Shown: positions 2,079 to 39,622, numbered from the stretch's first letter. The stretch is 64,000 bases of DNA from Desulfarculus sp. (GCA_016218705.1 JACRDC010000049.1:21660-85659); one strand, 5' to 3'. Made by a program: numbers and translations. The notes: generated from the letters alone by a model not told the origin.

Positions 2079-2137
2079 CGCCACTAACGGCCCCGGTCCC
2101 TTTGGGCCGGGGCCGATTTCGCTCCGGGAGCCTGTCC

Positions 2138-5426: not shown

Positions 5427-5466
5427 GCCGGCGCGGCCGTGGGGCTAATAACGAGCGAGGCGCGTG

Positions 5467-6228: not shown

Positions 6229-6241
6229 GGGAGCGCCCGTC

Positions 6242-7777
6242 ATGCTGGTGCACGAAATCCTGGAGTACTCCGCGCGGCGCCTGCCCGGCAAGACCGCCCT
6301 GGTGGAGGGCGACACCTCCCTGACCTATGCCCAGGCCTGGTCCAGGGTGCAGGCCCTGGCCGCCGGTCTGGCCGCCCAGGGCGTGCGCCCCGGCGACCGG
6401 GTGGCCCTCTTGTTCCCCAACTGCCTGGAGTTCTGCCTGGCCTATTTTGCGGTGCTTAGCCTGGGGGCCGTGGCCGTGCCCCTGAACAACCGCCTGGCCA
6501 GCCGCGAGTTCGCCTACATCGTGGGCGACGCCGGCCCCAAGGTGCTGATGCTGGGCCAGCAGTTCTGGGAGGCCTACCAGGGCTTCCGGGACGAACTTAC
6601 CCAGCAGCCGCTGCTGGTATGCGCCGGCCCCGACTGCCCGGACGGCGCCTTGTCTTTCGACGGCCTGTGCGCGACCGGTCAGACCCCGGCAGCCCCGCCG
6701 GCGCTTGACTCCGGCAGCCCCGCCTGCATCATGTACACCTCGGGCACCACGGGCCTGCCCAAGGGCGCGGTGATGAGCCACGGCAACATCTTCGCCAACG
6801 CGCGCAACTGCGGCGCCCATCTTAACTACCGCCAGAGCGACGTCACCCTGATCGTGGTGCCCCTGTTCCACGTCACCGGCCTCAACTCCCAACTGGTGGC
6901 CATGGCCTACGTGGGCGGCTCATGCGTGATAATGCGCGCCTACAACACCGCCCAGATGATCGAGCTCATCGCCCGCCACCGGGTCAGCATCACCTTCAAG
7001 GTGCCCACCATGTATACCCTGATGCTGGTCAGCCCATCCCTGGAACAGCACGACCTGGCCAGCCTGCGCCTGGCCGCCTATGGCGGGGCGCCCATGGACC
7101 CCGCCACCATCGAGGCCTTGCAGCAAAGGCTGGGCGTGGACCTGTACAACGCCTACGGGCTAACCGAGACCAGTTCGCTGGCCACCGTGCTGCCCTGCTG
7201 CGACGCCCTGCGCAAGGCCGGCTCGGTGGGCCTGGCGGTCACCGGCGTCAATCTGAAGGTGGTGGACGGCCAGGGCCAGGCCCTGCCCGCCGGCCTGGTG
7301 GGCGAGCTGTGGGCGCAGGGCCCCAATGTGGTGCAGAGCTACTGGAACAAGCCCCAGGCCAGCGCCGAGAGCCTGGGCGGCGGCTGGCTGCGCACCGGCG
7401 ACGTGGCGCGCATTGACGGCGAGGGGTTCGTCTACATCGTGGACCGCAAGAAGGACATGATCTGCCGGGGCGGCGAGAACATCTACTCCATCGAGGTGGA
7501 GGCGGCGCTGCTCAAGCACCCCCAGGTGATGGAGGCCGCCGTGGTGCCCAGGCCCCACTCCATCTTCCAGGAGGTGGTGCACGCCTTCTTGGTTCTCAAG
7601 CCCGGCGGCCAGGCCAGCGAGGACGAGATCATCGCCCACTGCCGCCGGCACATCGCCGACTTCAAGGCGCCGGCCTCGGTAAGCTTCGTGGAGGCCATGC
7701 CGCGCAACCCCGGCGGCAAGGTGCTGAAAAACGTGCTGCGCCAGGAGGTGCCCCCCGGCGATCCCCCCCGGCGCTAG
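6242..7777 (+). CDS. AMP-forming acyl-CoA synthetase/ligase
   Basis: AMP-binding signature IMYTSGTTGLPKGA, then YGLTE and TGD motifs and a C-terminal GGKVLK. ATG 6242 is in the frame of ORF 6209..7777. Confidence 0.85.
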   Translation: MLVHEILEYSARRLPGKTALVEGDTSLTYAQAWSRVQALAAGLAAQGVRPGDRVALLFPNCLEFCLAYFAVLSLGAVAVPLNNRLASREFAYIVGDAGPKVLMLGQQFWEAYQGFRDELTQQPLLVCAGPDCPDGALSFDGLCATGQTPAAPPALDSGSPACIMYTSGTTGLPKGAVMSHGNIFANARNCGAHLNYRQSDVTLIVVPLFHVTGLNSQLVAMAYVGGSCVIMRAYNTAQMIELIARHRVSITFKVPTMYTLMLVSPSLEQHDLASLRLAAYGGAPMDPATIEALQQRLGVDLYNAYGLTETSSLATVLPCCDALRKAGSVGLAVTGVNLKVVDGQGQALPAGLVGELWAQGPNVVQSYWNKPQASAESLGGGWLRTGDVARIDGEGFVYIVDRKKDMICRGGENIYSIEVEAALLKHPQVMEAAVVPRPHSIFQEVVHAFLVLKPGGQASEDEIIAHCRRHIADFKAPASVSFVEAMPRNPGGKVLKNVLRQEVPPGDPPRR

Positions 7778-7789
7778 GGGCCAACGCCC

Positions 7790-8053
7790 GTGCGCGTGGC
7801 GCTGAAATTCTGCGGGGGGTGCGACCCTGGCTTTGAACGCGGGGAATACTGGCAGGCCATCGCCCGGGCCGCCGGCCCAGAGATAGAGTGGGCGCGCCTG
7901 GAGGAAGAAGGCTGCCAGGCCGTGCTGCTGATCTGCGGCTGCGACACGGCCTGCCCACAGAAGGACATGCCCCCGGGCCTCAGACAGGTCTGCCTGAAAG
8001 ACGACCGCCTGGCCCCCGGCCAGGTGGTGAAAAAAATACTCCAGAAAGAGTGA
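7790..8053 (+). CDS. Small Cys-rich protein with CGGC motif, function unknown
   Basis: 87 aa starting at GTG. Contains KFCGGCDPGF and LLICGCDTACP. Sits 4 nt upstream of abfD and 12 nt after the ligase stop. Coding status rests on its position and Cys pattern only. Confidence 0.45.
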   Translation: MRVALKFCGGCDPGFERGEYWQAIARAAGPEIEWARLEEEGCQAVLLICGCDTACPQKDMPPGLRQVCLKDDRLAPGQVVKKILQKE

Positions 8054-8057
8054 AACC

Positions 8058-9500
8058 ATGAAGACCATACGCACCAAGGAAGACTACCTGCAAAGCCTGC
8101 GCGAGCTGGGCAGCGTCATCTATTTCAACGGCCAGCGGGTGGCCGACATCACCACCCACCCGGCCTTCATCCCCCACATCAACGCCGCCGCCAAGACCTA
8201 CGAGCTGGCCCAGCGCCCCGAGAGCGAGGACCTGGCCACGGCAATCAGCCACCTGACGGGCAAGCGCATCAATCGCTTCACGCACATCCATCAGTCGGTG
8301 GAGGACCTGATAAAGAAGGTCCAACTCCTCAGGCTCATCGCCCACGAGACCGGCAGTTGCTTCCAGCGCTGCGTGGGCTGGGACGCCATGAACGCCACCT
8401 ACATGACCACCTATGAGATTGACCAGAAGCACGGCACGCAGTATCACGCGCGCTTCGTGGAGTTCTTGAAGCGCATCCAGAGCGAAAACTTCATGCTGGT
8501 GGGCGGCATGACCGACCCCAAGGGCGACCGCTCCCTGCCCCCGGCCCAACAGGAGGACCTTGACCTCTTCACCCACGTGGTGGAGAAAAACGACAAGGGC
8601 ATCGTCATCCGGGGCGCCAAGGCCCACCAGACCGGCGGGGCCAACAGCCACGAGATACTGCTCATGCCCACCCAGGCCATGCGCCCCGATGACGCCGACT
8701 TCGCCCTGGTGGCGGCGGTGCCACTGAACGCGCCTGGAGTGGTGCAGATCTTCGGACGCCAGACCAACGACGAGCGCAAGCTGACCGGTGGCATGGACGC
8801 CGGCAACCCGGACTACGGCCTGGTGGGCGGCGAGACGCTCATCGTCTTCGAAAACGTCTTCGTGCCCTGGGAGCGCGTCTTCATGCTGGGCGAGACCGAG
8901 TTCGCCGGCCTGTTGGTGGAGCGCTTCGCCACCCTGCACCGCCAGAACTACGGCGGCTGCAAGGGCGGGGTCAGCGACATCCTGGTGGGGGCCTGCGCCT
9001 TGGCCAGCGAGATGCAGGGCTCGGCCAAGGCCAGCCACGTCAAGGAGAAGCTGGCCGAGATGATGCACCTGGCCGAGACCCTCTACGCCGGCTCGGTGGC
9101 CTGCTCGGCCATGGGCTCCAAGACGGCCAGCGGCGCCTTCTACCCCGACCCGCTCCTGGCCAACTGCACCAAGCACAACGTCACCCGCCACATCTACGAG
9201 ATCGCCCGCCTGGCCCACGACGTGGCCGGCGGCATCCTGGCCACCATGCCCTCTGAGAAAGACCTCAATAGCCCCGAGGTGGGCGGCTACGTGCGCAAGT
9301 ACATGGCCGGGGTCAAGGGCGTCTCTCCCGAGAACCGCATGCGCATCCTGCGCCTGATCGAGAACATGACCAGCGGCACCGCCTTGGTGGAGTCCATGCA
9401 CGGCGCCGGCTCGCCCCAGACCCAGAAGGTGATGTACGGCCGCCTGGGCAAGATGGACATGAAGAAGAAGATGGCCGCCAAGCTGGCGGGGGTTCAGTAG
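8058..9500 (+). CDS. abfD: 4-hydroxybutyryl-CoA dehydratase / vinylacetyl-CoA delta-isomerase
   Basis: 480 aa. Blocks SCFQRCVGWDA (Cys ligands), MTDPKGDR, IRGAKAHQTGG, HRQNYGGCKGG and ESMHGAGSPQTQ closely parallel the Clostridium aminobutyricum AbfD sequence as I recall it. Confidence 0.9.
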   Translation: MKTIRTKEDYLQSLRELGSVIYFNGQRVADITTHPAFIPHINAAAKTYELAQRPESEDLATAISHLTGKRINRFTHIHQSVEDLIKKVQLLRLIAHETGSCFQRCVGWDAMNATYMTTYEIDQKHGTQYHARFVEFLKRIQSENFMLVGGMTDPKGDRSLPPAQQEDLDLFTHVVEKNDKGIVIRGAKAHQTGGANSHEILLMPTQAMRPDDADFALVAAVPLNAPGVVQIFGRQTNDERKLTGGMDAGNPDYGLVGGETLIVFENVFVPWERVFMLGETEFAGLLVERFATLHRQNYGGCKGGVSDILVGACALASEMQGSAKASHVKEKLAEMMHLAETLYAGSVACSAMGSKTASGAFYPDPLLANCTKHNVTRHIYEIARLAHDVAGGILATMPSEKDLNSPEVGGYVRKYMAGVKGVSPENRMRILRLIENMTSGTALVESMHGAGSPQTQKVMYGRLGKMDMKKKMAAKLAGVQ

Positions 9501-9625
9501 GGCGCGGCCCACAACGACGCGATTGGGACAAGACGGGCGGGGGTCGAGTGCCTCGACTCCCAATGCGGGTCGGGAGACGCTCTACCCTGACCAACCCCGT
9601 CGGCTCCCGTACAGACCTTGTTGAA

Positions 9626-10369: not shown

Positions 10370-10463
10370 GGGGCTTCCAATCTCTGTTATTATGGCTGCT
10401 CCAAGTCTGTAGCCAGCGGCCCGGCCTGTCAATCACTTGTGTGCCCTGGCCTGGAGGACGCCC

Positions 10464-10859
10464 ATGCCCATGCTGGAGATCGCCACCAATGGCCGAAGCC
10501 AGGCCCTGGACATCACCCGCCAGGTGCAGCAGGCCGTGAGCGCCTCGGGGGTGGGGGAGGGCTGGGCCACGGTCTACGTGCCCCATACCACCGCCGGGGT
10601 GGCCATCAACGAGGCCGCCGACCCCGACGTCATGGCCGACGTGCTCATGACCCTGGAGCGTCTGGTGCCCTGGCAGGGCGGCTTTCGCCACGCCGAGGGC
10701 AACTCCGCCGCCCACGTCAAATCCATACTGGTGGGCTCCAGCGTGCGGGTGCCGGTGGGCGGTGGCCGTTTACTGCTGGGCACCTGGCAGGGCATCTTCT
10801 TCATGGAGTTCGACGGCCCCCGCCGCCGCACGGCCCGGGTGGAGGTGAGCCCGGCTTGA
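10464..10859 (+). CDS. YjbQ/UPF0047 family protein (secondary thiamine-phosphate synthase-like)
   Basis: MLEIATNGRSQALDITRQV...VYVPHTTAGVAINEAADPDV...HVKSILVGSS is the typical YjbQ pattern. A paralog lies at 27971-28414. Confidence 0.85.
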   Translation: MPMLEIATNGRSQALDITRQVQQAVSASGVGEGWATVYVPHTTAGVAINEAADPDVMADVLMTLERLVPWQGGFRHAEGNSAAHVKSILVGSSVRVPVGGGRLLLGTWQGIFFMEFDGPRRRTARVEVSPA

Positions 10860-12864: not shown

Positions 12865-12893
12865 TTGACATGCCCCTGGGGGGTTCCTATAAT
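12865..12893 (+). promoter_or_regulatory. Consensus sigma70-type promoter of dsrAB (TTGACA-17 bp-TATAAT)
   Basis: TTGACA 12865-12870 and TATAAT 12888-12893 with a 17-bp spacer, read directly. It lies about 230 nt upstream of dsrA ATG 13130. Confidence 0.6.
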
Positions 12894-15540: not shown

Positions 15541-15580
15541 CGCTACCCGGGGCCGTACAGCGGTCCCGGGTAGCGCATTT
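15541..15580 (+). terminator. Hairpin after dsrB (11-bp perfect stem) followed by CATTTT; possible attenuating terminator
   Basis: CGCTACCCGGG (15541-15551) pairs with CCCGGGTAGCG (15565-15575). The T-tract is weak. Confidence 0.45.
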
Positions 15581-15651: not shown

Positions 15652-16461
15652 GTGGCCGCCAAAAAGACCCTACTTAAAAACAATTACCAATTCCTGCTGC
15701 TGGGCTTTTTTGTGGCCCTGGCCGTGTACACGTATTTCCAAGACCGCGACAAGGAAGGCCCCGGCCGCTTCTTCGATGGCTACCAGGGCACCCTGGTGGT
15801 CCTGGACCTGCAAAGCGGGGAATACCAGCGCTTCAAGCCCGCCCAGGCGGCCAAGCGCCTGTCCCCCTGCTCCACCTTCAAGGTACCCAACGCCCTCATC
15901 GGCCTGGAGACGGGGGTGGTCTCCGGCCCGGACCACCTCTTGACCTGGGACGGGCAGCAGCGCCCCCTGGCGGCCTGGAACCAGAACCACACCCTGCATA
16001 CGGCCATGGAGAACTCGGTGGTGTGGTACTATCAGGAACTGGCCGCCGCCGTGGGGCCGGAGCGCATGGCCGAATACCTTAAAGCATTTGCTTACGGCAA
16101 TCAGGACGTCTCCGGGGGCATCTCTCGGTTTTGGCTGGGCAATAGCCTTCAAATCTCGGCTGACGAGCAGGTGGAGTTTTTACGCAAACTTTATGCGGAT
16201 GCCCTGCCCGCCCGGCCCGAGAACCAGGCCCTGGTGCGCGGCATGCTTGTGCTGCCCAAGACCGGCCAGGCCCAGCTCAGCGGTAAGACCGGCACCAACG
16301 TGGTCAACGGCAAGGCCACCCTGGGCTGGTTCGTGGGGCATGTGGCCAAGGACGGAAAGGCCCATGTCTTTGCCTGCAACATCGAGGCCGCCGACCAGGC
16401 CACCGGCGCCAAGGCCCGGCTGATCGTCGAGAAGGCCTTGCGGGCCAAGGGGTTGTTGTAG
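15652..16461 (+). CDS. Class D (OXA-type) serine beta-lactamase-like protein with N-terminal hydrophobic segment
   Basis: 269 aa. Motifs S74-T-F-K77, S122-V-V, Y148-G-N, W161, K212-T-G and GWFVGH occur with OXA-like spacing (Ser-to-SxV 48 residues, Ser-to-KTG 138 residues). Stop TAG overlaps the dsrN GTG. Confidence 0.85.
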   Translation: MAAKKTLLKNNYQFLLLGFFVALAVYTYFQDRDKEGPGRFFDGYQGTLVVLDLQSGEYQRFKPAQAAKRLSPCSTFKVPNALIGLETGVVSGPDHLLTWDGQQRPLAAWNQNHTLHTAMENSVVWYYQELAAAVGPERMAEYLKAFAYGNQDVSGGISRFWLGNSLQISADEQVEFLRKLYADALPARPENQALVRGMLVLPKTGQAQLSGKTGTNVVNGKATLGWFVGHVAKDGKAHVFACNIEAADQATGAKARLIVEKALRAKGLL

Positions 16462-17858
16462 TGGATCGGCCCCTGCCGCGCCTGGTGGTGGCCGCCCTCA
16501 GGGGGGGCTCGGGCAAGACCACCATAACCCTGGGGCTGATCCAGGCCCTGAAGAACCGCGGTCTGTCGGTCAAGCCATTTAAGAAGGGGCCCGACTACAT
16601 TGACCCCTTCTGGCACGGCGAGGCCGCCGGCACCCCCTGCCACAACCTGGACCCCTTCATGCTGGGCCGCGAGCAGGCGCTGGCCTCCTTCGGGCATTTC
16701 AGCCAGGGGTTCGAGGCGGCCCTGGTGGAGGGCAATCGGGGCCTTTTCGACGGCATGGACGCCACAGGCAGCCAATCCACGGCCGAGCTGGCCAAATGGC
16801 TGAAGGCCCCGGTGGTGCTGGTGGTGGACTGCTCCATGGCCAGCCGCACCGTGGCGGCGGTGGTGCTGGGCTGCCAGCGCTTCGACCCCGGCCTCAACCT
16901 GGCCGGGGTGGTGCTCAACCCGGTGGCCAACGCCCGCCAGGAGGGGGTCATCCGACGGGCCATCGAGGATACCACCGGCATCCCGGTGCTGGGGGCCGTG
17001 CCCCGGCTCAAGCTGTCCATGCCCGAGCGCCATATGGGCCTGTTGCCTCCCCAGGAGCACCGCCAGGTGGCCGATTCCCTGCGCCTGGCCGCCGAGGGCG
17101 TGGCCACCCACGTGGACGTGGAGGCCCTGTGGGGGCTGATGCGCTCGGCCCCGCCCTGGCCGGAGACGCCCCCGCCCCAGGGGTTGTTCCCCCCAGGGCC
17201 GCCAACCGGCGGCCGGCCATTGATCGGCGTGGTGCGCGACGCCGCCTTTGGCTTCTACTATCCCGAGAACCTGGACGCCCTGCAAAACCATGGCGCCCGC
17301 CTGGTCTTCTGCTCGGCCCTGGAGGATGCCGGCCTGCCCCCCGGCCTGGGGGCGTTGTACATCGGCGGCGGCTTTCCCGAGACCCACGCCAAGCTCCTGG
17401 CCGACAACCTGGCCTTCCGCCAGGCCATCCAGCGGGCGGCCAACCAGGGCCTGCCCATCTACGCCGAGTGCGGCGGCCTGATGTACCTGGGGCGCAATCT
17501 GCGGGTCGAGGGGCGAGCCTATCCCATGGCCGGGGTGTTTCCCCTGGACTTCGCCATGCAGAAGCGCCCCCAGGGGCACGGCTACACCCTCTGCCGGGTG
17601 GTGGGAGCCAACCCCTTCCTGCCCGTGGGCACCGAGTTCAAGGCCCACGAGTTCCACTACTCCCAGGCGCAAGCCCTGGAGGGCGCGGAATATAGCTTTG
17701 CGTACCAGGTGGTTAGGGGTCAGGGCCTCCTGGGGACCGGCGAGGGCCTCCGCCTCAACAACGTGCTGGGCACTTATCACCACGTACACGCCCTGGGCCT
17801 GCCCCAGTGGGCGCCCGGCCTGGTGCGGGCGGCCTCGGCCGGGGTAGAAGTTTCTTGA
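16461..17858 (+). CDS. dsrN: Cobyrinate a,c-diamide synthase family protein; by context DsrN (sirohaem amidase)
   Basis: 465 aa. CbiA-type P-loop GGSGKTT and glutamine amidotransferase Cys in AECGGLMYL. Located between dsrB and dsrD. Confidence 0.85.
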   Translation: MDRPLPRLVVAALRGGSGKTTITLGLIQALKNRGLSVKPFKKGPDYIDPFWHGEAAGTPCHNLDPFMLGREQALASFGHFSQGFEAALVEGNRGLFDGMDATGSQSTAELAKWLKAPVVLVVDCSMASRTVAAVVLGCQRFDPGLNLAGVVLNPVANARQEGVIRRAIEDTTGIPVLGAVPRLKLSMPERHMGLLPPQEHRQVADSLRLAAEGVATHVDVEALWGLMRSAPPWPETPPPQGLFPPGPPTGGRPLIGVVRDAAFGFYYPENLDALQNHGARLVFCSALEDAGLPPGLGALYIGGGFPETHAKLLADNLAFRQAIQRAANQGLPIYAECGGLMYLGRNLRVEGRAYPMAGVFPLDFAMQKRPQGHGYTLCRVVGANPFLPVGTEFKAHEFHYSQAQALEGAEYSFAYQVVRGQGLLGTGEGLRLNNVLGTYHHVHALGLPQWAPGLVRAASAGVEVS

Positions 17859-17934
17859 CAGGGTGGATGGCCGGCGATATGGTGGGGTCTGTTATTTTTA
17901 GCAAAAGTACGCTAAGCCAAGGAGGTTAGAGGAT

Positions 17935-18165
17935 ATGTCAGACGTCAGAGCGTTGGTGTTGCAGGTCTTGGAGAAGAAGCAAAAACGCATGATGATGAAC
18001 GACCTGCTGAAGGAGGTCCAGAAGCTGGACGAGAGCGTAAAAAAGAAGGATATCAAGCCGGTTACCACCGAGATGATCAACGATGGTACCCTGGCCTACT
18101 GGTCCAGCGGCTCCACCACCTACTTCGCGCTGCCCGGCTCCAAGGCCCCCGAGGGCGAGGACTAG
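17935..18165 (+). CDS. dsrD: DsrD
   Basis: 76 aa. The conserved DsrD block LAYWSSGSTTYFAL compares with EYWSSGSTTMYGL in Desulfovibrio DsrD as I recall it. AAGGAGG SD. Confidence 0.9.
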   Translation: MSDVRALVLQVLEKKQKRMMMNDLLKEVQKLDESVKKKDIKPVTTEMINDGTLAYWSSGSTTYFALPGSKAPEGED

Positions 18166-18334: not shown

Positions 18335-18976
18335 ATGTCCAAGATCGAGAATCCCAGCGGCATCCCCGACGACGACCTCATGCGCGAGGGGCTGATCGAC
18401 CGCCTGAGCCAGTACCTGGCCGCCGAGCCCGGGGCCTGGCACGTGCGCTACAATCTGGGGGTGGCCATGGCCCACGAGGGCCGCCTGGACGAGGCCCTGG
18501 AGCAGTTCGGGCTGGTACTGAAGGACGCCCCCAAGCACATGCAGAGCCTGGTCAATATCGGCGGCATCCACTTGTCGCGCGGCGACGCCGGCGAGGCCCT
18601 TAAGGCCTTCTCCTCGGCCTTGATGGTCTGGGACGTGCCCGTGGTGCGGGCCAACCTGGCCGTGGCCTACCTGCAACTGGACCGGCTGGAGGAGGCTGAG
18701 CGCGAGTTGCGCCGCGCCCTGGCCATGGACCCCAAGATGCCAGACGCGCTCACTAACTTGGGTAGCCTGCTGCTTCGGCGGGAGCGCTACGCCGAGTCGG
18801 CCGAGGCCAGCCGCCAGGCCCTGGAGCTGAGCCCGGATTTTGCCATGGCCTGCAACAACCTGGCCCTGGCGCTTCTGGCCCTGGAGCAGGTGGATCAGGC
18901 CCGGGAGCAGGCGGCCCGGGCCAAAGAGTTGGGCTACCCGGTGCACCCCGACCTGCTGGCCAGCCTGGGGTTATAG
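18335..18976 (+). CDS. Tetratricopeptide repeat protein
   Basis: 213 aa with several canonical 34-residue TPR units (e.g. WHVRYNLGVAMAHEGRLDEALEQFGLVLKDAP). Confidence 0.75.
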   Translation: MSKIENPSGIPDDDLMREGLIDRLSQYLAAEPGAWHVRYNLGVAMAHEGRLDEALEQFGLVLKDAPKHMQSLVNIGGIHLSRGDAGEALKAFSSALMVWDVPVVRANLAVAYLQLDRLEEAERELRRALAMDPKMPDALTNLGSLLLRRERYAESAEASRQALELSPDFAMACNNLALALLALEQVDQAREQAARAKELGYPVHPDLLASLGL

Positions 18977-19057: not shown

Positions 19058-19957
19058 ATGGAAGCCTTGGGGACCCTGGTCTTTGGCATCCTGCCCCACG
19101 CCGCCCTGGCGGTACTGCTGGGCGGGTGCGCCTGGCGCCTGTGGGGCTGGGCGGCCACCCCGGAGCCTTGGCCCCAGCCCTTGACCCCGGCCCCCGCCGG
19201 CCGGGCCGGAGTGGCTTGGCGGTTCTTGTGGCAGGCCCTGGCCATGCCGGCCCTGTGGCGGGCCAACCCCATACTGTGGGCCTTGGTCTGGCTGCTGCAC
19301 CTGTGCCTGCTGCTCACCTTCCTGCACCACCTGCGCCTGTTCGTGCAGCCGGTGCCGGAGTGGCTCATGGCCCTGCGCGCCCCCGGCCGCCTGGCCGGGC
19401 ACCTGCTACCCCTACTCTTGCTTATATTGTTGATGCGCCGCCTGGCCGGCCCAGTGCTGCGCCGGCTCTCGGTCTGGGAGGACTATCTGGCCCCGGCCCT
19501 GCTTTTGGCCTTGAGCCTTAGCGGCCTGGCCATGCACAGTCTGGAGCGGCCCCCCCTGGTGGAAATCAAGGCCCTGGCCCTGGGGCTCGTGGGCCTGCGC
19601 GCCGCCCCCTCGCCACCGGCCGGGCTGTTCTGGTTGCACTTCCTGCTGGCCCTGGGGCTGTGCTGCTACCTGCCCTGGGGCAAGCTGATGCACGGGGCCG
19701 GCCTGTGGTTGAGCCCGGGCCTGGGCCAGCCCGACAGCCTCCGTTCACGCGCCGCGGCCGCCACCGGCCAAGCCGCCACCCTGGTCCAGCCCGGCCCGCC
19801 GGAAACCTCCGCCTGGGGACCCGAGGAATACCGCGCCGCTCTGAAGAACCGCTGGGCCGGGGCCGGGGTGCACCGGGTCATGGGCGCCCGCGAGCGGGCG
19901 CAGAGCCTCACCGGCCACCGCCAGTGGCCAGGCCCGGGAGGCGACCATGGCCGCTGA
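19058..19957 (+). CDS. DsrM/NarI-like integral membrane dihaem cytochrome b candidate
   Basis: 299 aa, about 5 TM helices. N-terminus and His-containing helices (LHLCLLLTFLHH, GLAMH, LHFLL...GKLMH) resemble the DsrM/HmeC/NarI family. Overlaps the following HdrD-like gene by 11 nt. Confidence 0.7.
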   Translation: MEALGTLVFGILPHAALAVLLGGCAWRLWGWAATPEPWPQPLTPAPAGRAGVAWRFLWQALAMPALWRANPILWALVWLLHLCLLLTFLHHLRLFVQPVPEWLMALRAPGRLAGHLLPLLLLILLMRRLAGPVLRRLSVWEDYLAPALLLALSLSGLAMHSLERPPLVEIKALALGLVGLRAAPSPPAGLFWLHFLLALGLCCYLPWGKLMHGAGLWLSPGLGQPDSLRSRAAAATGQAATLVQPGPPETSAWGPEEYRAALKNRWAGAGVHRVMGARERAQSLTGHRQWPGPGGDHGR

Positions 19958-21407
19958 GTCCTGGCCGGCGCCCGCCATGGCGCTGGGCGCGTCGGCCGAT
20001 CAGGCCTGCCTGCCGGCCCAGGCCAACGACCTTGAGGCCCTGGGCCTGCCGGAAGCGTTGCCCCCGGACTGGCGCCAGCGTCTTTTGGGGGCCTTTGGCC
20101 AGGCCCTGGAGGGGCAGCGCGGCCTGCGCCAGGCCTTGGAGGCCTGCGTGGGCTGCGGGGCCTGCCACCAGTCTTGTTCGTTCCACCTGGGCACCGGCGA
20201 CCCCCACAACACCCCGCAAGGCCGCGCCGACTTGGCCAGGCGGTTGTACCGGCGGCATTTTTCGCCTCGGGCGCGGCTGTTGGGCCGGTGGGGCCAGCCA
20301 AGGGATATCCTTGATGAAGACCTGCTGGGCCTTTGGCGGGCCTATTTCTGGCAGTGTACCCTCTGCCGCCGCTGCACCCTGTTCTGCCCCCTGGGCATAG
20401 ACACCTCCCTGGTCACTCGGGCCTGCCGCCACATCCTGGCCCAAGTGGGACAGGTGCCTGGGCATGTCGCCCGCGAGTTCTTGGGCATCCTGGGCAGCGG
20501 CAACGGCCAAGGCCTGCCGCCAGCCGCCTGGACCGCCCGGCACCAGGCCCTGGAGGAGGAGCTCCTGCGCGAGACCGGCCAGGCCATGGCCTGCCCCGTG
20601 GACGAGCAGGGCGCGGACGTGCTCTTGATCCCCTCGCCCCAGGAGCCCTTCAGCCAATCCGCCACCTACAAGGGCTACGCCAAGGTCTTCCACGCCGCCG
20701 GCCTGTCCTGGACCACCAGCACCTACTTGAACCAGGCCAGCAATCCCGGCCTCTGGCTGGGTCCCCGCCAGGCGGCCCTGGTGGGGCGCCGGGTGTTGGA
20801 GGCCACCCGCCTGCTCAAGCCCCGGCACATCGTCGTCGCCGAGAGCGGACAGGGATGGGCGGTCTTGCGCAACCTGGGGGCGGTGCTGGCCGGCGGCTTG
20901 GCCGGCGAGAAATACCTCAAGGCCAAGGAGCCCCTGCATATCTGCCAGCTCAGCAGCCGCCTGCTCAAGGAGGGGGCCTTTGCCGGCGTCCTGCGGCCCC
21001 AGGCCCTGCAGGGGGTCAAACCGGTGTTTCACGAGCCCTGCCAGGTGGCGCGCTCCGGCGGGCTGGGCCAGGAGCCCCGCCGCCTGCTCAAGGCCGCCTG
21101 CCTGGGCTGGCTGGAGATGCCCAAACCCGTGGGCGGCCCCCTAACCCTGTGCTGCGGGGCCGGCGGCGGGCTCAACGCCCCGGAGCTGTACCAAGTCCGC
21201 CTGGCCGGCCTGATGCCCCTGGCCCGGGCCTTGGCCCAGGCCCAGCGCCGCCAGGGCTGCACCGCCGTGGTGACCATGTGCGCCACCTGCCAGGACCAAC
21301 TGGGCGAGGGGCTGGCCCACTTCGGTCTGGGCCTGACCGTGCACGGGGTGCACGAGTTCCTGGGCCAGGCCCTGTACCCCTCGCGCCCGGCGGAGGCCAG
21401 GCCGTGA
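19947..21407 (+). CDS. DsrK/HdrD-like iron-sulfur (CCG-domain) oxidoreductase
   Basis: 486 aa. Two ferredoxin motifs, CVGCGACHQSC and CTLCRRCTLFCP. C-terminal Cys-rich CCG region (LCCGAGGG, CATCQDQ). Confidence 0.8.
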   Translation: MAAESWPAPAMALGASADQACLPAQANDLEALGLPEALPPDWRQRLLGAFGQALEGQRGLRQALEACVGCGACHQSCSFHLGTGDPHNTPQGRADLARRLYRRHFSPRARLLGRWGQPRDILDEDLLGLWRAYFWQCTLCRRCTLFCPLGIDTSLVTRACRHILAQVGQVPGHVAREFLGILGSGNGQGLPPAAWTARHQALEEELLRETGQAMACPVDEQGADVLLIPSPQEPFSQSATYKGYAKVFHAAGLSWTTSTYLNQASNPGLWLGPRQAALVGRRVLEATRLLKPRHIVVAESGQGWAVLRNLGAVLAGGLAGEKYLKAKEPLHICQLSSRLLKEGAFAGVLRPQALQGVKPVFHEPCQVARSGGLGQEPRRLLKAACLGWLEMPKPVGGPLTLCCGAGGGLNAPELYQVRLAGLMPLARALAQAQRRQGCTAVVTMCATCQDQLGEGLAHFGLGLTVHGVHEFLGQALYPSRPAEARP

Positions 21408-21430
21408 GGCCGGGGCAGGGCAGGGGCCTG

Positions 21431-21701
21431 ATGGTCGGGGCGTTGGTCCTGGCCGGGCTGGCCCTGGCCGCCTGCGCCCCGCCGGCCCCGCCCCCCCGGC
21501 GCCAAGGCCAGGGCCGGGGCCATGCGGCCCGAGTATCACCAGCCGGCCCCCTGGTGGCGCGACCGGCACGCGCTGCTCCTGGAGCGGGCCGCCGCCGGGC
21601 TCAGGCTGGCCGACTGCCGGGTCTGCCACCAGCCCTCCCAGGCCTGCCGGCCCTGCCACGCCTATGTGGGCCTGCCCCCCGGGGAGGCCGACCGTGACTA
21701 G
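21431..21701 (+). pseudogene. Putative dihaem c-type cytochrome lipoprotein; signal peptide and haem domain are in different frames across a C7 tract (frameshift or sequencing error)
   Basis: ATG 21431 encodes MVGALVLAGLALAAC (lipobox LAAC). From 21498 the +1 frame encodes ...YHQPAPWWRDRHALLLE...ADCRVCHQPSQACRPCHAYVG, ending at TAG 21699-21701. The frames switch at C7 21491-21497. Confidence 0.45.
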
Positions 21702-22344
21702 ACCGCCGGCAAATCCGGGAGGGCGGGGCCGCCCCGGCCCGTGGGTCTGGCTGGAGCGCCGCCTGGGCCTGGGCGAGGCCTTTCGCCAGCGCTACCTGGA
21801 GCGCCAGGTGCCGGCATTGCGCGGCTGGCCCCAGTATTTCCACCGCTGCCTGGGGGGGCTGAGCCTGCTGCTCTTGGTGGTGCAACTCCTCACGGGGCTC
21901 TTTTTGCTGCTGCACTACCGGCCCGAGCCCGGCCAGGCCCTGGCCAGCCTGATGCGCATGGAGGCCCAGGTCTGGGGGGGCTGGGCGCTCAGACGGGCCC
22001 ACGCCGTGGGTGGCAACCTCTTGCCGTGGCTGGTGAGCCTGCATATGCTCAAGGTGCTGTGGCGGGGCGCCTTTCATGATCCCCGCGAACTCAACTGGCT
22101 CAGCGGCGCGCTGCTGTGGCTGGCCAGCCTGGCCATGCTGGTCAGCGGCGGGTTGTTGCCCGCCACCCAGGGCGCCTGGCGGGGGCTGGCCACCCTGTGC
22201 CAGGCCCTGGGCCTGGACCCGCCGGGCCTGGAGGGCCTGGGTCTGGCCCATGGCCTGCATCTGGGCCTGCCCTGGCTGATGCTCCTGGCCCTGTGGGCCC
22301 ACCTGGCCATGGTGCGCCGCCTGGGCCTGGCCGAGCCTTTGTGA
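21694..22344 (+). CDS. Cytochrome b N-terminal domain protein (b6-like)
   Basis: WLERRLGLGEAFRQRYLERQVP...YFHRCLGG resembles the cytochrome b6 N-terminus. Two His pairs sit 14 residues apart (AHAVGGNLLPWLVSLH; LHLGLPWLMLLALWAH). GTG 21694 follows GGGGAGG; ATG 21664 is an alternative start. Confidence 0.8.
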   Translation: MTRPPANPGGRGRPGPWVWLERRLGLGEAFRQRYLERQVPALRGWPQYFHRCLGGLSLLLLVVQLLTGLFLLLHYRPEPGQALASLMRMEAQVWGGWALRRAHAVGGNLLPWLVSLHMLKVLWRGAFHDPRELNWLSGALLWLASLAMLVSGGLLPATQGAWRGLATLCQALGLDPPGLEGLGLAHGLHLGLPWLMLLALWAHLAMVRRLGLAEPL

Positions 22345-22357
22345 CCAGGATGAAGCC

Positions 22358-22771
22358 ATGAAGATCTACGACCCCCGCCGCGACGGACCCTTGCAGCCCC
22401 TGGTGCCCCACGGCCTACTGGACCTGGCCCTGGCCGGCCTGGGTCTCCTGGTGCTGTTGGTGGGGCTGTGCGTGCTGGCCCCGGGCTGGTTCCAGGACCC
22501 GCCCCTGCCGGCGGGCGGGGCTGCCCTGGCCGGGGAGGCCACGCCGGCCTGGTACTGGCTGCCCCTGCTGGGGCTGTTTGATCTGCTGCCCGGCGGCTGG
22601 GGCCTGACCCTGGGGGTGCTTATGCTGCTGGCCCTGGGGGGCCTGCCCTTCTGGCGGCGCGGTCCGCGTCTGCCCGCGCGCCAGCGTCCCCTGTTCCTCA
22701 AGGTGCTTCTTACCGCCCTGACTCTGCTCCTTGGCCTCTTCCTGTGGGGGGCCTGGAGGATGACGGCCTGA
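22358..22771 (+). CDS. Cytochrome b C-terminal domain / b6f subunit IV-like protein
   Basis: 137 aa with 3 TM helices. Contains PAWYWLP at the position of the PEWY quinol-site motif. Lies 13 nt after the cytochrome b gene. Confidence 0.65.
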   Translation: MKIYDPRRDGPLQPLVPHGLLDLALAGLGLLVLLVGLCVLAPGWFQDPPLPAGGAALAGEATPAWYWLPLLGLFDLLPGGWGLTLGVLMLLALGGLPFWRRGPRLPARQRPLFLKVLLTALTLLLGLFLWGAWRMTA

Positions 22772-23385
22772 TGGACGGGCGGGCGCTCATGGGGCCCTGG
22801 GCCTGGAGATGGGGCGTGGCCCTGGCCCTGTTTTTGGGCCTGGCGGTCTGGCCGGCCACCGCCGGCGCCCAGGCCGGCCCGGGGGGCCAGTGCCGGCAGT
22901 GCCACCTGAGCCAGCCCTCGCGGGTGCTGGGGCAACTGGCCTGGCAGGGGCCGCTGGAGCAGGGACGGCTCACCCCCTGTCCGGGGCTCCAGGTGGTGCA
23001 GGAGGAGCTTTGGGCCACCGAGAGCCTGCTCAGCGGCCTGGCCGCCCAGTTGCCCGGCCTGGCCCGCCAGGGCCGTTACGTGGAGCCCTGGCGCCTGGCC
23101 CTGCACCAGGCCCGGGCCGGCCTGGCCTTGGCCCTGGCCGAGCCCCTGGAGGACGGCGGGCCGGCTGTCCGGCGCCTGGCCCAGGTGCGCCGCCTGGCCC
23201 ATGAGGGCGCCCTGGCCCCCCTGCTGGAGCAGAACCAGCTCAGCCGCCAGCGTCTGTGGTGGGGGCTATTGTTGCTGGGCGGCCTACTACTGGCCCTGGC
23301 CTGGCTGGTGGGATGGCGCCGGGGCCTGCCGGCCGAGCCCGGCGAGCGCGTCTTCGCCCGGGTCAAGGCGGGGCGCCTGCCATGA
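22771..23385 (+). CDS. Membrane-anchored monohaem c-type cytochrome
   Basis: Signal peptide WGVALALFLGLAVWPATAGAQA, a single CRQCH motif, and a C-terminal TM helix (LWWGLLLLGGLLLALAWLVGW). ATG 22771 overlaps the upstream stop (TGATG). Confidence 0.6.
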   Translation: MDGRALMGPWAWRWGVALALFLGLAVWPATAGAQAGPGGQCRQCHLSQPSRVLGQLAWQGPLEQGRLTPCPGLQVVQEELWATESLLSGLAAQLPGLARQGRYVEPWRLALHQARAGLALALAEPLEDGGPAVRRLAQVRRLAHEGALAPLLEQNQLSRQRLWWGLLLLGGLLLALAWLVGWRRGLPAEPGERVFARVKAGRLP

Positions 23386-25082
23386 AGTTTACGGCGCTCA
23401 AGTGGGCCAGGGGCTGGCTGGCCGGGCTGGCGGGCCTGCTTTGGGCCTGTGGCCTGGGGGCGGTGCTGGGTTGCTCCGAGGCCCCGGAGCCGCCCTCCAC
23501 CGCTATTGGCCAGCAGCAGGCGGCGGCCCGCGCCCAGGCCCAGGAGTTGGCCGGTCAGTTGGCGGCCCGGCGGGAGCGGGTGCTGGCCCTGTGCGGCCTG
23601 GCGGCCAAGGCCGCGCCCAGCACCCCGGACCTGGCCCGGGGACTCTACCAGGAGGCCTGGCAAGAGGCCCAGTCCCTGGCCGAGCCCAAGGCCGCGGTGC
23701 TGGCCCAGCAACTGCGCCAGGAGGCCGGCGCCGCCCAGGACGCGGCCCGCCGGCGGGAACTGGACCTGGCCGGGCGCCTGGAGGATTACAGCCGGCGGGC
23801 CTGGCCGCTCAGGGTGGTGGCCGAGGGCTGCCAGGCCTTGGCTCCCCAGGTGGCCGCCCAGGCCCTCAAGCAGGGCCTGGCCCTGGCCAAGGTCAACCCC
23901 GACCTGGTGGCCCGCGACCAGGACCTGGGGGGCTTCTGCCTGGTGCTGGCCCGCCGCGACCCCGTGGCCGGCCGCGCCCTGGCCGGCGAGTTGGGCGACC
24001 CCCTGTGGCGGGCCTGGGTCTGGCGGGAGCTGGCCGTCCTGGAGGGCGGACCCCTGGCCTGGACCCAGGCGGCCCAGGCGGCCCGCGAGCTGCCCCATAC
24101 CGCCCTGCGCGCCCGTGAGCTGGCGGCCACGGCTTTGGCCGCCTGCGAGTCCGACCCCGCCCTGGGGCTCACCCTCTTTCAGGAAGCCTTCCAGGCCGCC
24201 GGCGGCCTGGCCCAGCCCCGGGAGCGTGCCCTGTTGCAGGGCCAGGTGGCGGCGCTTTTGGCGCGGGTGGACGCCGAGTCGGGCTGGCGCCTGGCCAAGC
24301 GGGCCGAGCCCCTGGCCGGCGCCCGCTTCCAGGCCTGCCGCTGGGCCGGCCTGGCCCTGTTGGGCAGCGACCCCGTGGCCGGCCGGCGCGCCCTGCACGA
24401 GGCCTGGGAGGCCTCCCAGGCCCTGCCCCTGGAGTTCGAGCGCCAGCGGGCCGTGTGCCTGCTGGCCCAAGACCTGGCCGGCCCCGACCCGGCCCTGGCC
24501 CGGGAGATGCTGGAGACCCTGCCCCCGGGCGAGAACCTGTTGCGCGGCGAGGCCGAGGCTGCTATGGTGCTGGCCGAGGCCAGCCGGGACTGGCCAGCGG
24601 CCCTGGCCCAGGCCTCGCGGCTTGCCGATCCCTTGAGCCGCCTGCGGGTGCTGATGCGCCTGAGCGCGGTGGCTGGGCAGGGCCAGGCCGGCTCCAGCGC
24701 GGAGCTACTGGCCCGCGCCCTGGACCTGGCCCGGCCCCTGGGGGCCCATGAGGCCCTGCGCGCCCTTGCCCTGGAGTGGGCGGCCCGGGAGCCGCGCAAA
24801 GGGGTTGACATCGCCGCCGCCATCGGCGAAAACGTGGCCAGGGCCGCGGCGCTGTCCAGCGTGGCCAGGGTCCTGGCCCAGGGGGGGCAGACGGCCGCCA
24901 GCCAGTGGGCCTTGTATCTGGCCGAGGAGGCCCTGCAAGGACTGCCAGCCAATCAGGCTATTGACAAGGCGCGCTTGCTGGGCGATATGGGACAGGAATG
25001 GGCCGCGGGCGACGCGGAGTTGTCCCGGCGCTTTTTTGAGATGGGCGCCGAGGCGGCCAGGAAAGTGGGTACCAGCAGTTGA
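23382..25082 (+). CDS. Ala/Leu-rich helical-repeat lipoprotein, function unknown
   Basis: 566 aa. Lipobox AVLGC. Long repetitive A/L/R/E-rich sequence (HEAT/TPR-like by eye). ATG 23382 overlaps the upstream stop (ATGA). The track ORF 23256..25082 contains it. Confidence 0.55.
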   Translation: MKFTALKWARGWLAGLAGLLWACGLGAVLGCSEAPEPPSTAIGQQQAAARAQAQELAGQLAARRERVLALCGLAAKAAPSTPDLARGLYQEAWQEAQSLAEPKAAVLAQQLRQEAGAAQDAARRRELDLAGRLEDYSRRAWPLRVVAEGCQALAPQVAAQALKQGLALAKVNPDLVARDQDLGGFCLVLARRDPVAGRALAGELGDPLWRAWVWRELAVLEGGPLAWTQAAQAARELPHTALRARELAATALAACESDPALGLTLFQEAFQAAGGLAQPRERALLQGQVAALLARVDAESGWRLAKRAEPLAGARFQACRWAGLALLGSDPVAGRRALHEAWEASQALPLEFERQRAVCLLAQDLAGPDPALAREMLETLPPGENLLRGEAEAAMVLAEASRDWPAALAQASRLADPLSRLRVLMRLSAVAGQGQAGSSAELLARALDLARPLGAHEALRALALEWAAREPRKGVDIAAAIGENVARAAALSSVARVLAQGGQTAASQWALYLAEEALQGLPANQAIDKARLLGDMGQEWAAGDAELSRRFFEMGAEAARKVGTSS

Positions 25083-25129
25083 GTTTCGGGTTTTGCCCGG
25101 TTTGATGCCAATCGGAAGGAGGACAGCTT

Positions 25130-25315
25130 ATGTTCCAGGTCGTGGTTGATGCCGACAAATGCGTTGGCGACGAGGAGTGCGTGGAGGTTTGCCCGGTGGA
25201 CGTGTATGAAATGCAAGATGGCAAGGCGGTCCCCGTGAACGCGGAGGAGTGCCTGGGCTGCGAGAGCTGCGTCGAGGTGTGCGAGAACGACGCCATCACG
25301 ATCACCGAAGTCTAA
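25130..25315 (+). CDS. 7-Cys + Asp14 ferredoxin (Desulfovibrio africanus FdIII-like [3Fe-4S]/[4Fe-4S] type)
   Basis: 61 aa. C11-x2-D14-x2-C17-x3-C21-P and C41-x2-C44-x2-C47-x3-C51-E. Strong SD GGAAGGAGG. Confidence 0.9.
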   Translation: MFQVVVDADKCVGDEECVEVCPVDVYEMQDGKAVPVNAEECLGCESCVEVCENDAITITEV

Positions 25316-25333: not shown

Positions 25334-25380
25334 AACCCGCCGCGGGGCCCCTGCCGGCCCCGCGGCGGGTTTTGTGTTTC
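25334..25380 (+). terminator. Rho-independent terminator after the ferredoxin gene
   Basis: ACCCGCCGCGGGGCC / GGCCCCGCGGCGGGT stem followed by TTTTGTGTTT. Confidence 0.75.
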
Positions 25381-25430
25381 CCGGCCCTGGCGGGCACCGG
25401 CGGGTTTTGATTTTTGGCCGCCCAAGCCCC

Positions 25431-25785: not shown

Positions 25786-26217
25786 CTACTTGGCCTTGGG
25801 ATGGCACTCGTCGCACTTGGTGGGGCCCTTCTTCTGGTCCTTGTGGCAGTCGCGGCACTGCTTGTGGAAGGCGTTGTAGAGGCTCAGGCTCTCGCCCTCC
25901 ACCGGGGGCTTCTTGTCCGCGGAGGTATGGCACTCGGCGCATTTCTGCACCTTGTCGCCGTCCTTCCAGGTGTTGGTCTTCTTGTCCTTCTTCACGTGGT
26001 GGCACTTGTCGCAGGCGATCTTGTACTCCACGTTGTGCTTGGTGTGGGTCAGCTTCACCGGGGCCTTGGTCAGGGTGCCGAAGACCTTGGTGTTGTCAAT
26101 GGGGAACTCGTCCTTCACCTCGCCGGACTTGGTTTTGGCCGCCCAGGCCGCCCCTCCCACCAGGGCCAGCGCCAGGAAGGCCACCAGGGCCAAGATGGCA
26201 ACAAAGCTTTTCTTCAT
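25786..26217 (-). CDS. Tetrahaem cytochrome c3 (class III, periplasmic)
   Basis: 143 aa with a signal peptide ending in AWA. Four haem motifs: CDKCH, CAECH, CRDCH, CDECH. Lys-rich, a typical c3. Confidence 0.92.
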   Translation of the reverse strand: MKKSFVAILALVAFLALALVGGAAWAAKTKSGEVKDEFPIDNTKVFGTLTKAPVKLTHTKHNVEYKIACDKCHHVKKDKKTNTWKDGDKVQKCAECHTSADKKPPVEGESLSLYNAFHKQCRDCHKDQKKGPTKCDECHPKAK

Positions 26218-27970: not shown

Positions 27971-28403
27971 ATGTCACCCATGGCCTGCCACGTCCACAAC
28001 CTGGAGCTGCCGGGAAGCTCTGGCACGGACATTCATGATGTCACCTCCCAGGTGCTGGCGGCGGTCGGCCAGAGCGGGGTGCGGGCGGGCTTGGTCACCG
28101 TGCACACGCCAGGCTCCACCGCCGCCGTCACCACCATCGAGCATGAGCCGGGGGTCCTGGAGGACCTGCGGGCCGCCCTGGAGCGCCTGGCTCCCCAAGG
28201 CGCCCATTACGCCCACAACGCCCGCTGGGGCGACGGCAACGGCTACGCCCACGTGCGCGCCGCCCTGTTGGGTCCCTCGCTGTCGCTGCCCATAGAAAAC
28301 GGCCGCCCGCTCCTGGGGCAGTGGCAGCAGGTCGTGGTGCTGGACCTGGACAACCGCCCCCGCCGCCGGCGGGTGGTCATCCAGGTGCTGGGGGAGCAGT
28401 GCC

Positions 28404-28414
<11 letters not shown>
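27971..28414 (+). CDS. YjbQ/UPF0047 family protein (second copy)
   Basis: DIHDVTSQV...[20 protein letters not shown]...[10 protein letters not shown]...[10 protein letters not shown] parallels the copy at 10464-10859. Confidence 0.8.
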
Positions 28415-39511: not shown

Positions 39512-39622
39512 CATTTGGAGGCATAGGACACCCGGCGGGTTACGCTTCGCTAACCGCCCTTCCCCCTTTCCCTGATTATTCCTCAGCAACAACGCCTTCG
39601 ACCGCCCCCCGCCACCGCCCCC

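Follow-up and report, generated by a model that had tools for sequence, protein, structure and literature searches.

A block of genes at 19058-25315 in a 64-kb stretch of DNA (the window, 68% G+C) from a metagenome-assembled genome (MAG) labelled "Desulfarculus sp.", of an uncultured lineage of sulfate reducers, follows directly on dsrABND and is tentatively read here as encoding a lineage-specific, Dsr-associated transmembrane electron-transfer complex that is built on a divergent DsrMK-type core. The block is conserved in order across many lineages, and the DsrK-like subunit has lost a catalytic cysteine throughout its clade. The periplasmic cytochromes c and a solenoid lipoprotein stay with the core even where the cytochrome b6/subunit IV pair found here is missing or exchanged. 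Most likely, the block works beside a canonical DsrMKJOP complex that is encoded elsewhere, and not in its place. The genes of the block are as follows:

19058..19957 (+), DsrM-like NarI-type dihaem b membrane protein, DsrM' (Pfam Nitrate_red_gam; NCBIfam DsrM below cut-off)
19947..21407 (+), DsrK-like cytoplasmic Fe-S protein, DsrK' (Pfam Fer4_8 plus CCG; NCBIfam DsrK below cut-off)
21431..21701 (+), small dihaem c lipoprotein gene, c2, frameshifted here (split frames; intact orthologues elsewhere)
21694..22344 (+), cytochrome b6-like protein, GTG start (Pfam Cytochrome_B; PDB profile b6)
22358..22771 (+), subunit IV-like (SUIV) three-helix protein with Qo motif PAWY (family profile against the PDB)
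22771..23385 (+), monohaem cytochrome c, c1, with a C-terminal transmembrane anchor (one CxxCH; orthologue in L021)
23382..25082 (+), 566-residue periplasmic solenoid lipoprotein (lipobox at C31; AlphaFold2 (AF2) model)
25130..25315 (+), 61-residue two-cluster ferredoxin, Fd (Cys motifs; strong Shine-Dalgarno sequence)

Seven of these are intact co-directional open reading frames (ORFs) with a coding-like codon bias (G+C at third codon positions, GC3, of 0.89-0.92), and the junctions between consecutive genes measure -11, +23, -8, +13, -1, -4 and +47 nucleotides (nt). An earlier note on this DNA had described eight co-directional genes with gaps below 50 nt and a terminator at 25334; the junctions, the hairpin and seven of the genes bear this out, but the interval 21431-21701 is not an ORF. 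The individual calls of that note largely stand: Pfam and motifs agree with the DsrM-like, DsrK-like and ferredoxin assignments, and the cytochrome b6-like protein with His pairs 14 apart, the SUIV-like protein with PAWY, the monohaem c with a C-terminal anchor and the 566-residue lipoprotein were all recovered with the features claimed for them.

Conservation of the block

The order dsrA-dsrB-(class-D beta-lactamase-like)-dsrN-dsrD-TPR-DsrM'-DsrK'-(c2)-b6-SUIV-c1-solenoid-Fd, where TPR stands for a tetratricopeptide-repeat protein, is found in at least 11 distinct lineages, and among the lineages that carry the block the identity of cytochrome b falls to 42%. This recurrence is more than chance, and the placement of the cluster directly downstream of dsrABND as one tight block, as first seen in the window, is conserved across relatives. 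On the 3' side, the usual neighbours of the block are a convergent cytochrome c3 gene, MazG, CvpA, YjbQ and PhoH. For all genes the ratio of nonsynonymous to synonymous substitution rates (dN/dS) is below 1, and the block genes are under purifying selection; in a comparison of the window with the related locus L002 (loci are given here as L numbers), the complex genes have a dN/dS of 0.37-0.75, against 0.15 in dsrAB and 0.14-0.41 in other neighbouring genes. As to a cluster in cultured Desulfarculus baarsii, the searches turned up no close homologue from any complete genome, which is absence of evidence only.

A different view takes the block for the remnant of a paralogous dsrMK cluster that has become dispensable and is decaying towards loss. 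The frameshift of c2 in the window and the loss of c2 in several lineages, the lost catalytic Cys of DsrK' and a relatively high dN/dS (0.58-0.85 for the two cytochromes c) would fit such a history. Nevertheless, all other ORFs have stayed intact in at least 11 lineages, whose identity has dropped to 35-50%, the cofactor ligands are all invariant, and new fusions and insertions have become fixed; moreover, the ratios stay below 1 everywhere, in a GC3-saturated genome whose neighbouring housekeeping genes reach 0.3-0.4. In view of purifying selection and the conserved order across lineages, pseudogene decay was rejected as the main explanation, and a drift towards loss is very improbable.

The DsrMK-type core and the loss of GECGH

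DsrK' is identical to MBI5522600.1 and carries two [4Fe-4S] motifs (C67/70/73/77 and C137/140/143/147) as well as a complete five-Cys CCG motif (C365, C402/403, C445/448), all of which are invariant across the family and its outgroups. In a family profile, the CCG cysteines align to the C-terminal CCG domain of HdrB. The best curated family for DsrK' is DsrK itself (NCBIfam NF045796), with 288.7 bits against a cut-off of 400, followed by TmcB at 116 and HmcF at 93, and the DsrK' of locus L021 reaches 371.7 bits on the same DsrK model. The closest outgroups of DsrK' are the DsrK proteins of DsrMK-only operons beside dsrABC. Single-sequence searches for solved structures yielded nothing useful for DsrK' or DsrM', and the PDB entries found with the family profile were limited to HdrB/HdrC and one "iron-sulfur-binding reductase".

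Canonical DsrK, TmcB and HmcF share a (T/G)ECGH motif whose Cys (Cys329 in Archaeoglobus fulgidus) is strictly conserved and probably essential (PMC10861901); the motif comprises the non-ligating catalytic Cys329 and His331, and by cryo-electron microscopy the Cys was seen as a persulfide beside the noncubane cluster (bioRxiv 10.64898/2026.08.25.746951). Where canonical DsrK has GECGH, the window DsrK' has AESGQ. The change is not peculiar to the window, as all 22 clusters of the DsrK' clade fit [AG]E[SDEN][GA][QHLG], with the Cys lost throughout and the His lost in most, and the other full-length matches that fit the motif pattern (P0037-P0064) all have GECGH. In a neighbour-joining tree the Cys-less sequences form one clade, the exception being P0062 (L021), a basal branch of the GECGH group. 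When 1.84 billion representatives were searched with a profile, the best 148 included about 12 sequences without the Cys, 48 with it and 85 that did not match the pattern.

A clade-specific Cys216 (in CP[VL]DE) co-varies with the loss of GECGH and was considered as a relocated catalytic cysteine. This candidate was rejected: the N-terminal CCG spacing of HdrB, in what we take to be its numbering, places the vestigial first-Cys position near residues 228-231 of DsrK' and not at 216, and proximity to the active site is unsupported.

Because the Cys and His of GECGH are absent and the score lies below the NCBI cut-off, DsrK', as judged by its sequence, cannot simply be taken as the core of a DsrC-trisulfide reductase, and on these two counts the earlier reading of the block as built on the DsrC-reducing DsrMK core is weakened. 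For the mechanism proposed for DsrK, a DsrK-like clade without the supposedly essential Cys is also a natural test.

DsrM' passes the Pfam Nitrate_red_gam model (29.3 bits against a cut-off of 22.9), and on the NCBIfam model for DsrM of the DsrMKJOP type it scores 93.8 bits against a cut-off of 300, over a region about 11 residues shorter than the model. It has the five hydrophobic helices and two His pairs of a NarI-type dihaem b protein, the pairs being invariant and spaced as in NarI (H81/H91 in helix 2, H-x9-H; H194/H212 in helix 5, H-x17-H). The signature of DsrM-2 consists of two Arg residues and a loop insertion at the third transmembrane helix (TMH3) that blocks the quinol site; DsrM' is collinear with DsrM of the DsrMK-only locus L015 and has no TMH3 insertion relative to it. 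About 75 residues at its C-terminus (19700-19957) form a cytoplasmic extension with a conserved RWAGAGVHRVMGARERA motif, which occurs only in loci with b6/SUIV and is absent from the family locus L021 and the outgroup L015, a weak contrast of one locus each.

Cytochrome b6 and subunit IV without a Rieske gene in the operon

The cytochrome b6-like protein scores 74.6 bits on Pfam Cytochrome_B, and its profile matches cytochrome b6 in the PDB over the full length (E=3e-33). It has four helices with invariant haem-ligand pairs H103/H117 and H189/H203, and the invariant C52 of its C52-L-G-G aligns to the Cys of FYCLGG in b6 (haem cn); this haem has CxGG as its published signature (PMC5600118). Some 15 residues are missing from the cd loop in comparison with b6, and the cut-offs of NCBIfam are missed both for b6 (93.6 against 325) and for ExtP, the best-scoring curated model (108.4 against 290). 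SUIV on its own is marginal in Pfam (PF00032, 14.4 against 20.7 bits, E=0.047), and an eight-member family profile, read down to an E limit of 1, found only the C-terminal half of cytochrome b and subunit IV of b6f in the PDB (best E=1.2e-6). Its PAWY aligns to the PEWY Qo loop; PAWY and PPWY are natural variants of the Qo motif (PMC4122944), and the lineages examined here carry PAWY, PPWY, PPWH or PPWP. By sequence, both b-type proteins are genuine homologues, one of cytochrome b6 and the other of subunit IV.

No Rieske, DsrJ/O/P or DsrC was found in the 64 kb by Pfam on about 50 ORFs and a six-frame motif scan that included CxH...CxxH, in agreement with the earlier statement that the window has neither a Rieske protein nor DsrJ/O/P. 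Rieske or DsrJOP genes were likewise missing from the flanks retrieved for the 18 family loci, and in no lineage does the operon, or the DNA within 10 kb of it, contain a Rieske gene. "Rieske-less" holds for the locus, not for the genome. The cytochrome b6 of this locus is a candidate quinol oxidiser with no Rieske gene in its operon.

The cytochromes c, the solenoid lipoprotein and the ferredoxin

The c2 interval is 271 nt long. A signal peptide and lipobox lie in the frame of the ATG at 21431, and two CxxCH motifs lie in a different frame that ends at 21701; in a DNA alignment with L002/L003 the break is a +1 frameshift, with one extra base in or beside a C7 run. The small dihaem c lipoprotein proposed for this interval is thus present in its parts and intact in relatives (90-118 residues in L017, L018-20, L002/L003 and L011; also intact in L021, L025 and L016), but in the window its frames are split. 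L017, whose c2 is intact, is 88% identical to the window, and the c2 of the window is either a recent pseudogene or a homopolymer error of assembly.

The second cytochrome, c1, has a signal peptide, one invariant CxxCH (the motif is invariant in both cytochromes c), an invariant Cys-Pro that follows 25 residues on, a long helical stretch, a C-terminal transmembrane helix and a conserved cytoplasmic tail, VKAGRLP. It matches no family in Pfam or NCBIfam, and the family alignment shows no invariant Met or second His. Because of this and the invariant Cys-Pro, we infer that its haem might have His/Cys ligation. A SoxA-like His/Cys haem was considered and rejected, as the profile match to SoxA is weak (E=0.007) and the invariant Cys aligns to a Trp and not to the Cys ligand of SoxA. 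The DsrJ model NF038038 (cut-off 100) gave no match for c1; its best match is the dihaem c of L002 (L002:9682-10008), at E=0.1 and 12.9 bits over the two C-terminal CxxCH, which may reflect distant DsrJ ancestry or chance. In place of a trihaem protein of about 120 residues, by which DsrJ would be recognised, the block has three CxxCH split 2+1 over two proteins.

The 566-residue lipoprotein belongs to an orphan family with only 14 clusters of homologues, none with a Pfam domain. Its AF2 model (pLDDT 89.3, pTM 0.80) predicts an all-alpha, TPR-like solenoid of about 28 helices, for which a fold search of the PDB gave only generic TPR/repeat matches with low TM-scores. The ferredoxin carries CxxDxxCxxxCP and CxxCxxCxxxC, the first motif being of the CxxDxxC form; it is 82-100% identical across all family loci with a dN/dS of 0-0.06, and a PDB search with it reached only generic 2x[4Fe-4S] domains.

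Fusions and exchangeable quinone modules

Several of these genes are fused in relatives: b6 with SUIV in L011, SUIV with c1 in L013, and c1 with the solenoid in L016 and P0097, and the parts appear to belong together because of these fusions. Two loci indicate which of the parts are constant. L021, a JGI contig of 601 kb with 58% G+C, has the order dsrD-dsrAB-dsrN-HEAT-DsrM'-DsrK'-c2-c1-solenoid-Fd with the same flanks and no b6/SUIV, the pair that in the block is inserted exactly between c2 and c1. L016, from a Chloroflexi MAG (172-9620), has a DsrK with canonical GECGH, followed by a c2 homologue, a Rieske protein with a twin-arginine translocation signal, a monohaem c, a molybdopterin oxidoreductase, an FeS protein, an NrfD protein and, as the last gene, a c1-solenoid fusion. 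Since L021 does without b6/SUIV and L016 has another module, the constant partners of these DsrMK-type cores are the two cytochromes c and the solenoid, and the quinone module varies; to judge from these loci, the quinol module looks exchangeable. Of the earlier picture of a hybrid of DsrMK and a bc-like module, the b6 and subunit IV homologies and the single tight gene block are borne out, but L021 shows the conserved partners of DsrM'K' to be the cytochromes c and the solenoid and not the bc module. These loci suggest that DsrMK-type cores have a recurring, unrecognised set of periplasmic partners (a dihaem c, an anchored monohaem c and the solenoid protein), beside which stand b6/SUIV here, Rieske plus Mo/FeS/NrfD in the Chloroflexi locus and no quinone module in L021, in parallel to the recruitment of DsrJOP.

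The same loci bear on the rather unlikely alternative that the block encodes two independent enzymes that are merely co-transcribed with dsr. DsrM'K' would then be a quinol:acceptor oxidoreductase with its own NarI-type site, and b6/SUIV with cytochrome c would be a menaquinol:cytochrome c (c3) oxidoreductase or, working in the opposite direction, a cytochrome c3:menaquinone reductase like Qrc. This would suit L021, in which b6/SUIV is missing while the rest stays, the cytochrome c3 gene as a conserved neighbour, and the SUIV-c1 fusion, which resembles the QcrC arrangement of Firmicutes. It would also suit DsrM', which is collinear with the DsrM of a DsrMK-only locus and keeps all four His, and it accords with the proposal that DsrM-1 oxidises quinol itself (Yin et al.). 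Against it, c1 and c2 accompany a DsrMK-type core even without b6/SUIV (L021, L016), and as b6/SUIV sits exactly between c2 and c1, c1 would have to be shared by both putative enzymes; the restriction of the DsrM' extension to loci with b6/SUIV points the same way, though weakly, as it depends on absence from L021 and L015 only.

Proposed electron flow and relation to DsrMKJOP

The favoured reading, that of one complex on a divergent DsrMK-type core, comprises three parts. The core itself would consist of DsrM' as a NarI-like dihaem b and DsrK' with two [4Fe-4S] clusters and a site for a CCG noncubane-type cluster, without the catalytic Cys of GECGH. Its periplasmic module would comprise the dihaem c lipoprotein, the membrane-anchored monohaem c and the TPR-like solenoid lipoprotein, and in this sublineage b6/SUIV, with haems bp, bn and probably cn, would serve as the quinol module. 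The formation of a complex, the direction of electron flow through it and its acceptor would, as we infer them, be as follows. Menaquinol would be oxidised at a Qo-type pocket of b6/SUIV on the periplasmic side, and the electrons would pass to the anchored haem of c1, perhaps together with the dihaem c. They would then reach the outer haem of DsrM' and be carried across the membrane to DsrK'. The acceptor that DsrK' reduces in the cytoplasm would be the ferredoxin encoded in the block or else, by a modified mechanism, a sulfur carrier of the DsrC type. As in Tmc and Hmc, this chain of haems c may also receive electrons from periplasmic cytochrome c3. By analogy, such a flow would mirror the one published for DsrMKJOP, in which quinol is oxidised at DsrP, electrons pass from DsrO to DsrJ, DsrM and DsrK, and the quinol site of DsrM is blocked (bioRxiv 10.64898/2026.08.25.746951).

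Several points weigh against this reading. DsrM' resembles DsrM-1/NarI in having no TMH3 insertion relative to the DsrM of L015 and might oxidise quinol alone; b6/SUIV would therefore be unnecessary for that step. A Rieske gene could sit elsewhere in the genome, and we know of no biochemical demonstration of Rieske-independent quinol oxidation at a Qo site. With the GECGH Cys gone, the reaction on the cytoplasmic side is left undefined; several lineages lack the dihaem c or have it in broken form, dsrAB evolves more slowly than the complex genes, and a dsrMKJOP in this MAG is presumed from related genomes. The case is also confined to uncultured MAG lineages, in which the functions are predicted.

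The earlier note had suggested that a bc-like module could replace DsrJOP. In this model the block would be the organism's sole Dsr membrane complex, in which DsrM'K' reduces DsrC-trisulfide and b6/SUIV with cytochrome c has replaced DsrJOP as the quinol-oxidising, energy-conserving part. There is some evidence in favour of this: in every lineage the block comes directly after dsrABND, no curated family scores higher on DsrK' than DsrK (288.7 bits; TmcB reaches 116), the nearest outgroups come from DsrMK-only operons by dsrABC, no DsrJOP was found in the 64 kb, and the electron path would parallel the published one from DsrP/O through J and M to K. Nevertheless, the GECGH Cys and mostly also the His are lost clade-wide, the scores lie under the equivalog cut-offs, and L021 lacks b6/SUIV. 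In addition, a separate DsrT-M-K-J-O-P locus is present in Desulfarculus baarsii, Desulfarculus sp. SURF_10 (itself a Desulfarculus sp. MAG, which also has the dsrA-dsrB-x-dsrN-dsrD layout) and Desulfocarbo indianensis (Neukirchen et al. 2023 supplement), and Deltaproteobacteria with a dsrMK-only copy also have DsrMKJOP (Neukirchen et al.). The evidence for a canonical dsrTMKJOP comes from these three Desulfarculaceae genomes, and a canonical complex in the MAG of the window is an extrapolation from them. Because of the separate loci in these three genomes and the missing catalytic Cys, outright replacement of DsrJOP is decidedly unlikely, and the model of a sole Dsr membrane complex is improbable to a similar degree. 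As a functional analogy, a bc-like module in the role of DsrJOP stays plausible.

A variant of the proposed flow would be a long shot: Rieske-free b6/SUIV would pass electrons from menaquinol directly to an anchored haem c, maybe with His/Cys ligation, and on to the DsrM-type b as a true substitute for DsrJOP, and the Cys-less DsrK' would reduce ferredoxin and not DsrC-trisulfide. If this were true, a ferredoxin-reducing DsrK' would be a membrane-linked supply of electrons to DsrAB, whose physiological donor is unknown. The wiring of sulfite reduction to the membrane and the electron source of DsrAB are still debated, and the organisms with "only DsrMK" are the least understood.

Flanking genes and transcription signals

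The following features flank the block:

17855..17883 (+), sigma-70-like promoter match TTGACA-17-TATGGT, 5' of dsrD (consensus match only)
17935..18165 (+), dsrD, directly upstream context gene (Pfam DsrD on the identical gene in L001; dN/dS 0.03-0.17)
18335..18976 (+), cytoplasmic TPR protein between dsrD and the DsrM-like gene (Pfam TPR families)
25334..25381 (+), intrinsic-terminator-like hairpin with a 16-bp stem (14 GC pairs) plus T tract, closing the block
25786..26217 (-), tetrahaem cytochrome c3 gene, convergent (Pfam Cytochrom_CIII, 57 bits)

The hairpin itself (25334-25371, followed by the T tract) is the sole strong terminator-like hairpin in the part of the window that the block occupies, and to judge by its match to the consensus, the promoter 5' of dsrD possibly starts a transcription unit that runs to this terminator. 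Rfam gave no match in the window. The TPR gene is found in every family locus that covers its position, with a HEAT-repeat protein in its stead in L021, and its product is better conserved than the complex genes (dN/dS 0.06-0.24). The cytochrome c3 gene lies at the same position in L002, L004, L008, L009, L013, L017, L018, L021, L023 and L024, and its product is a candidate periplasmic partner of the block.

Further upstream, a perfect sigma-70 consensus (TTGACA-17-TATAAT) lies at 12865-12893, 5' of dsrA, and a strong terminator-like hairpin at 15541-15575 lies directly 3' of dsrB. These two signals suggest that dsrAB is a strongly expressed unit of its own, from which transcription reads through into the genes that follow. 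Between dsrB and dsrN, an odd passenger in a dsr operon is encoded at 15652-16461 (+), a class-D beta-lactamase or BlaR1-sensor-like protein with an N-terminal transmembrane helix (NCBIfam bla_class_D_main, 242.8 bits against a cut-off of 250); its gene is kept there in L002, L003, L011 and L023 and is absent from L013 and L021. Two YjbQ/UPF0047 paralogues, at 10437-10859 and 27971-28414, flank the whole dsr region, a pairing also seen in L013 and L021. A lone integrase-core (rve_3) fragment of 123 residues at 39221-39592 (-) is probably the remnant of an insertion sequence.

Comparison with known systems

The closest likeness is to DsrMK and DsrMKJOP of Archaeoglobus fulgidus and Desulfovibrio, with which the block shares a NarI-type four-His b subunit, a subunit with two [4Fe-4S] motifs and CCG, the overlapping gene pair beside dsrAB, and periplasmic haems c that are predicted to feed the b-type subunit. 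In contrast to DsrMKJOP, the block lacks the Cys and His of GECGH as well as DsrJ, DsrO and DsrP, scores below the NCBIfam cut-offs, and adds the b6/SUIV pair, the solenoid lipoprotein and the ferredoxin, with its haems c split into a dihaem and a monohaem protein that have no detectable homology to DsrJ. TmcABCD and HmcABCDEF of Desulfovibrio, which are thought to move electrons from periplasmic cytochrome c3 to the cytoplasm, have in common with the block an architecture of periplasmic cytochrome c, NarI-like b protein and HdrD-like CCG protein. However, TmcB and HmcF retain the T/GECGH that DsrK' is without (PMC10861901), Tmc and Hmc have no b6/SUIV, and the cytochromes c of the block are unrelated to theirs, with no multihaem c3 fold of the TmcA type and no family match.

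Cytochrome b6f and the QcrABC complex of Firmicutes resemble the block in the four-helix b6 with four His and the CxGG Cys and in the three-helix SUIV with PxWY. A cytochrome c gene lies directly 3' of SUIV and, as in QcrC, is fused to it in one lineage. Unlike these complexes, the block has no Rieske gene, a shorter cd loop and a place within a DsrMK-like operon, and its cytochrome c, anchored at the C-terminus and carrying an additional invariant Cys, represents a new family. The ExtOPQ/Cbc-type clusters of Geobacter are alike as bc-type modules with non-canonical cytochromes c in a menaquinone-using anaerobe; they differ in the Rieske protein ExtO of the Ext cluster (PMC5877670), in multihaem cytochromes with 4-12 haems and in having no DsrMK-like module.

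Two loci met in the course of this work come near to the block from other sides. At L006:8001-12918, a cytochrome b with an N-terminal CxxCH, a subunit IV and a Rieske protein are encoded next to a fused NarI+HdrD-like protein of 639 residues and an FeS protein, so that a Rieske-containing bc complex, as yet uncharacterised, is genetically coupled to an HdrED/DsrMK-like module; the cytochrome b, SUIV and NarI/HdrD-like parts recall the block, but a Rieske gene is present and c2, c1 and the solenoid are missing. L016 shares the dihaem c and the c1-solenoid homologues with the block and differs in keeping GECGH and in having Rieske plus Mo/FeS/NrfD in place of b6/SUIV. As far as gene content tells, these two uncharacterised loci show that cores of the DsrMK/HdrED type recruit varied quinone modules. 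No description of the architecture was found in the searchable literature on DsrMK with cytochrome b or Rieske, on Dsr in Desulfarculus, on bc with HdrD, or on Cbc/Ext of Geobacter, as the earlier note had supposed, and the block is apparently an undescribed variant among the known modular membrane complexes of the Dsr/Tmc/Hmc type.

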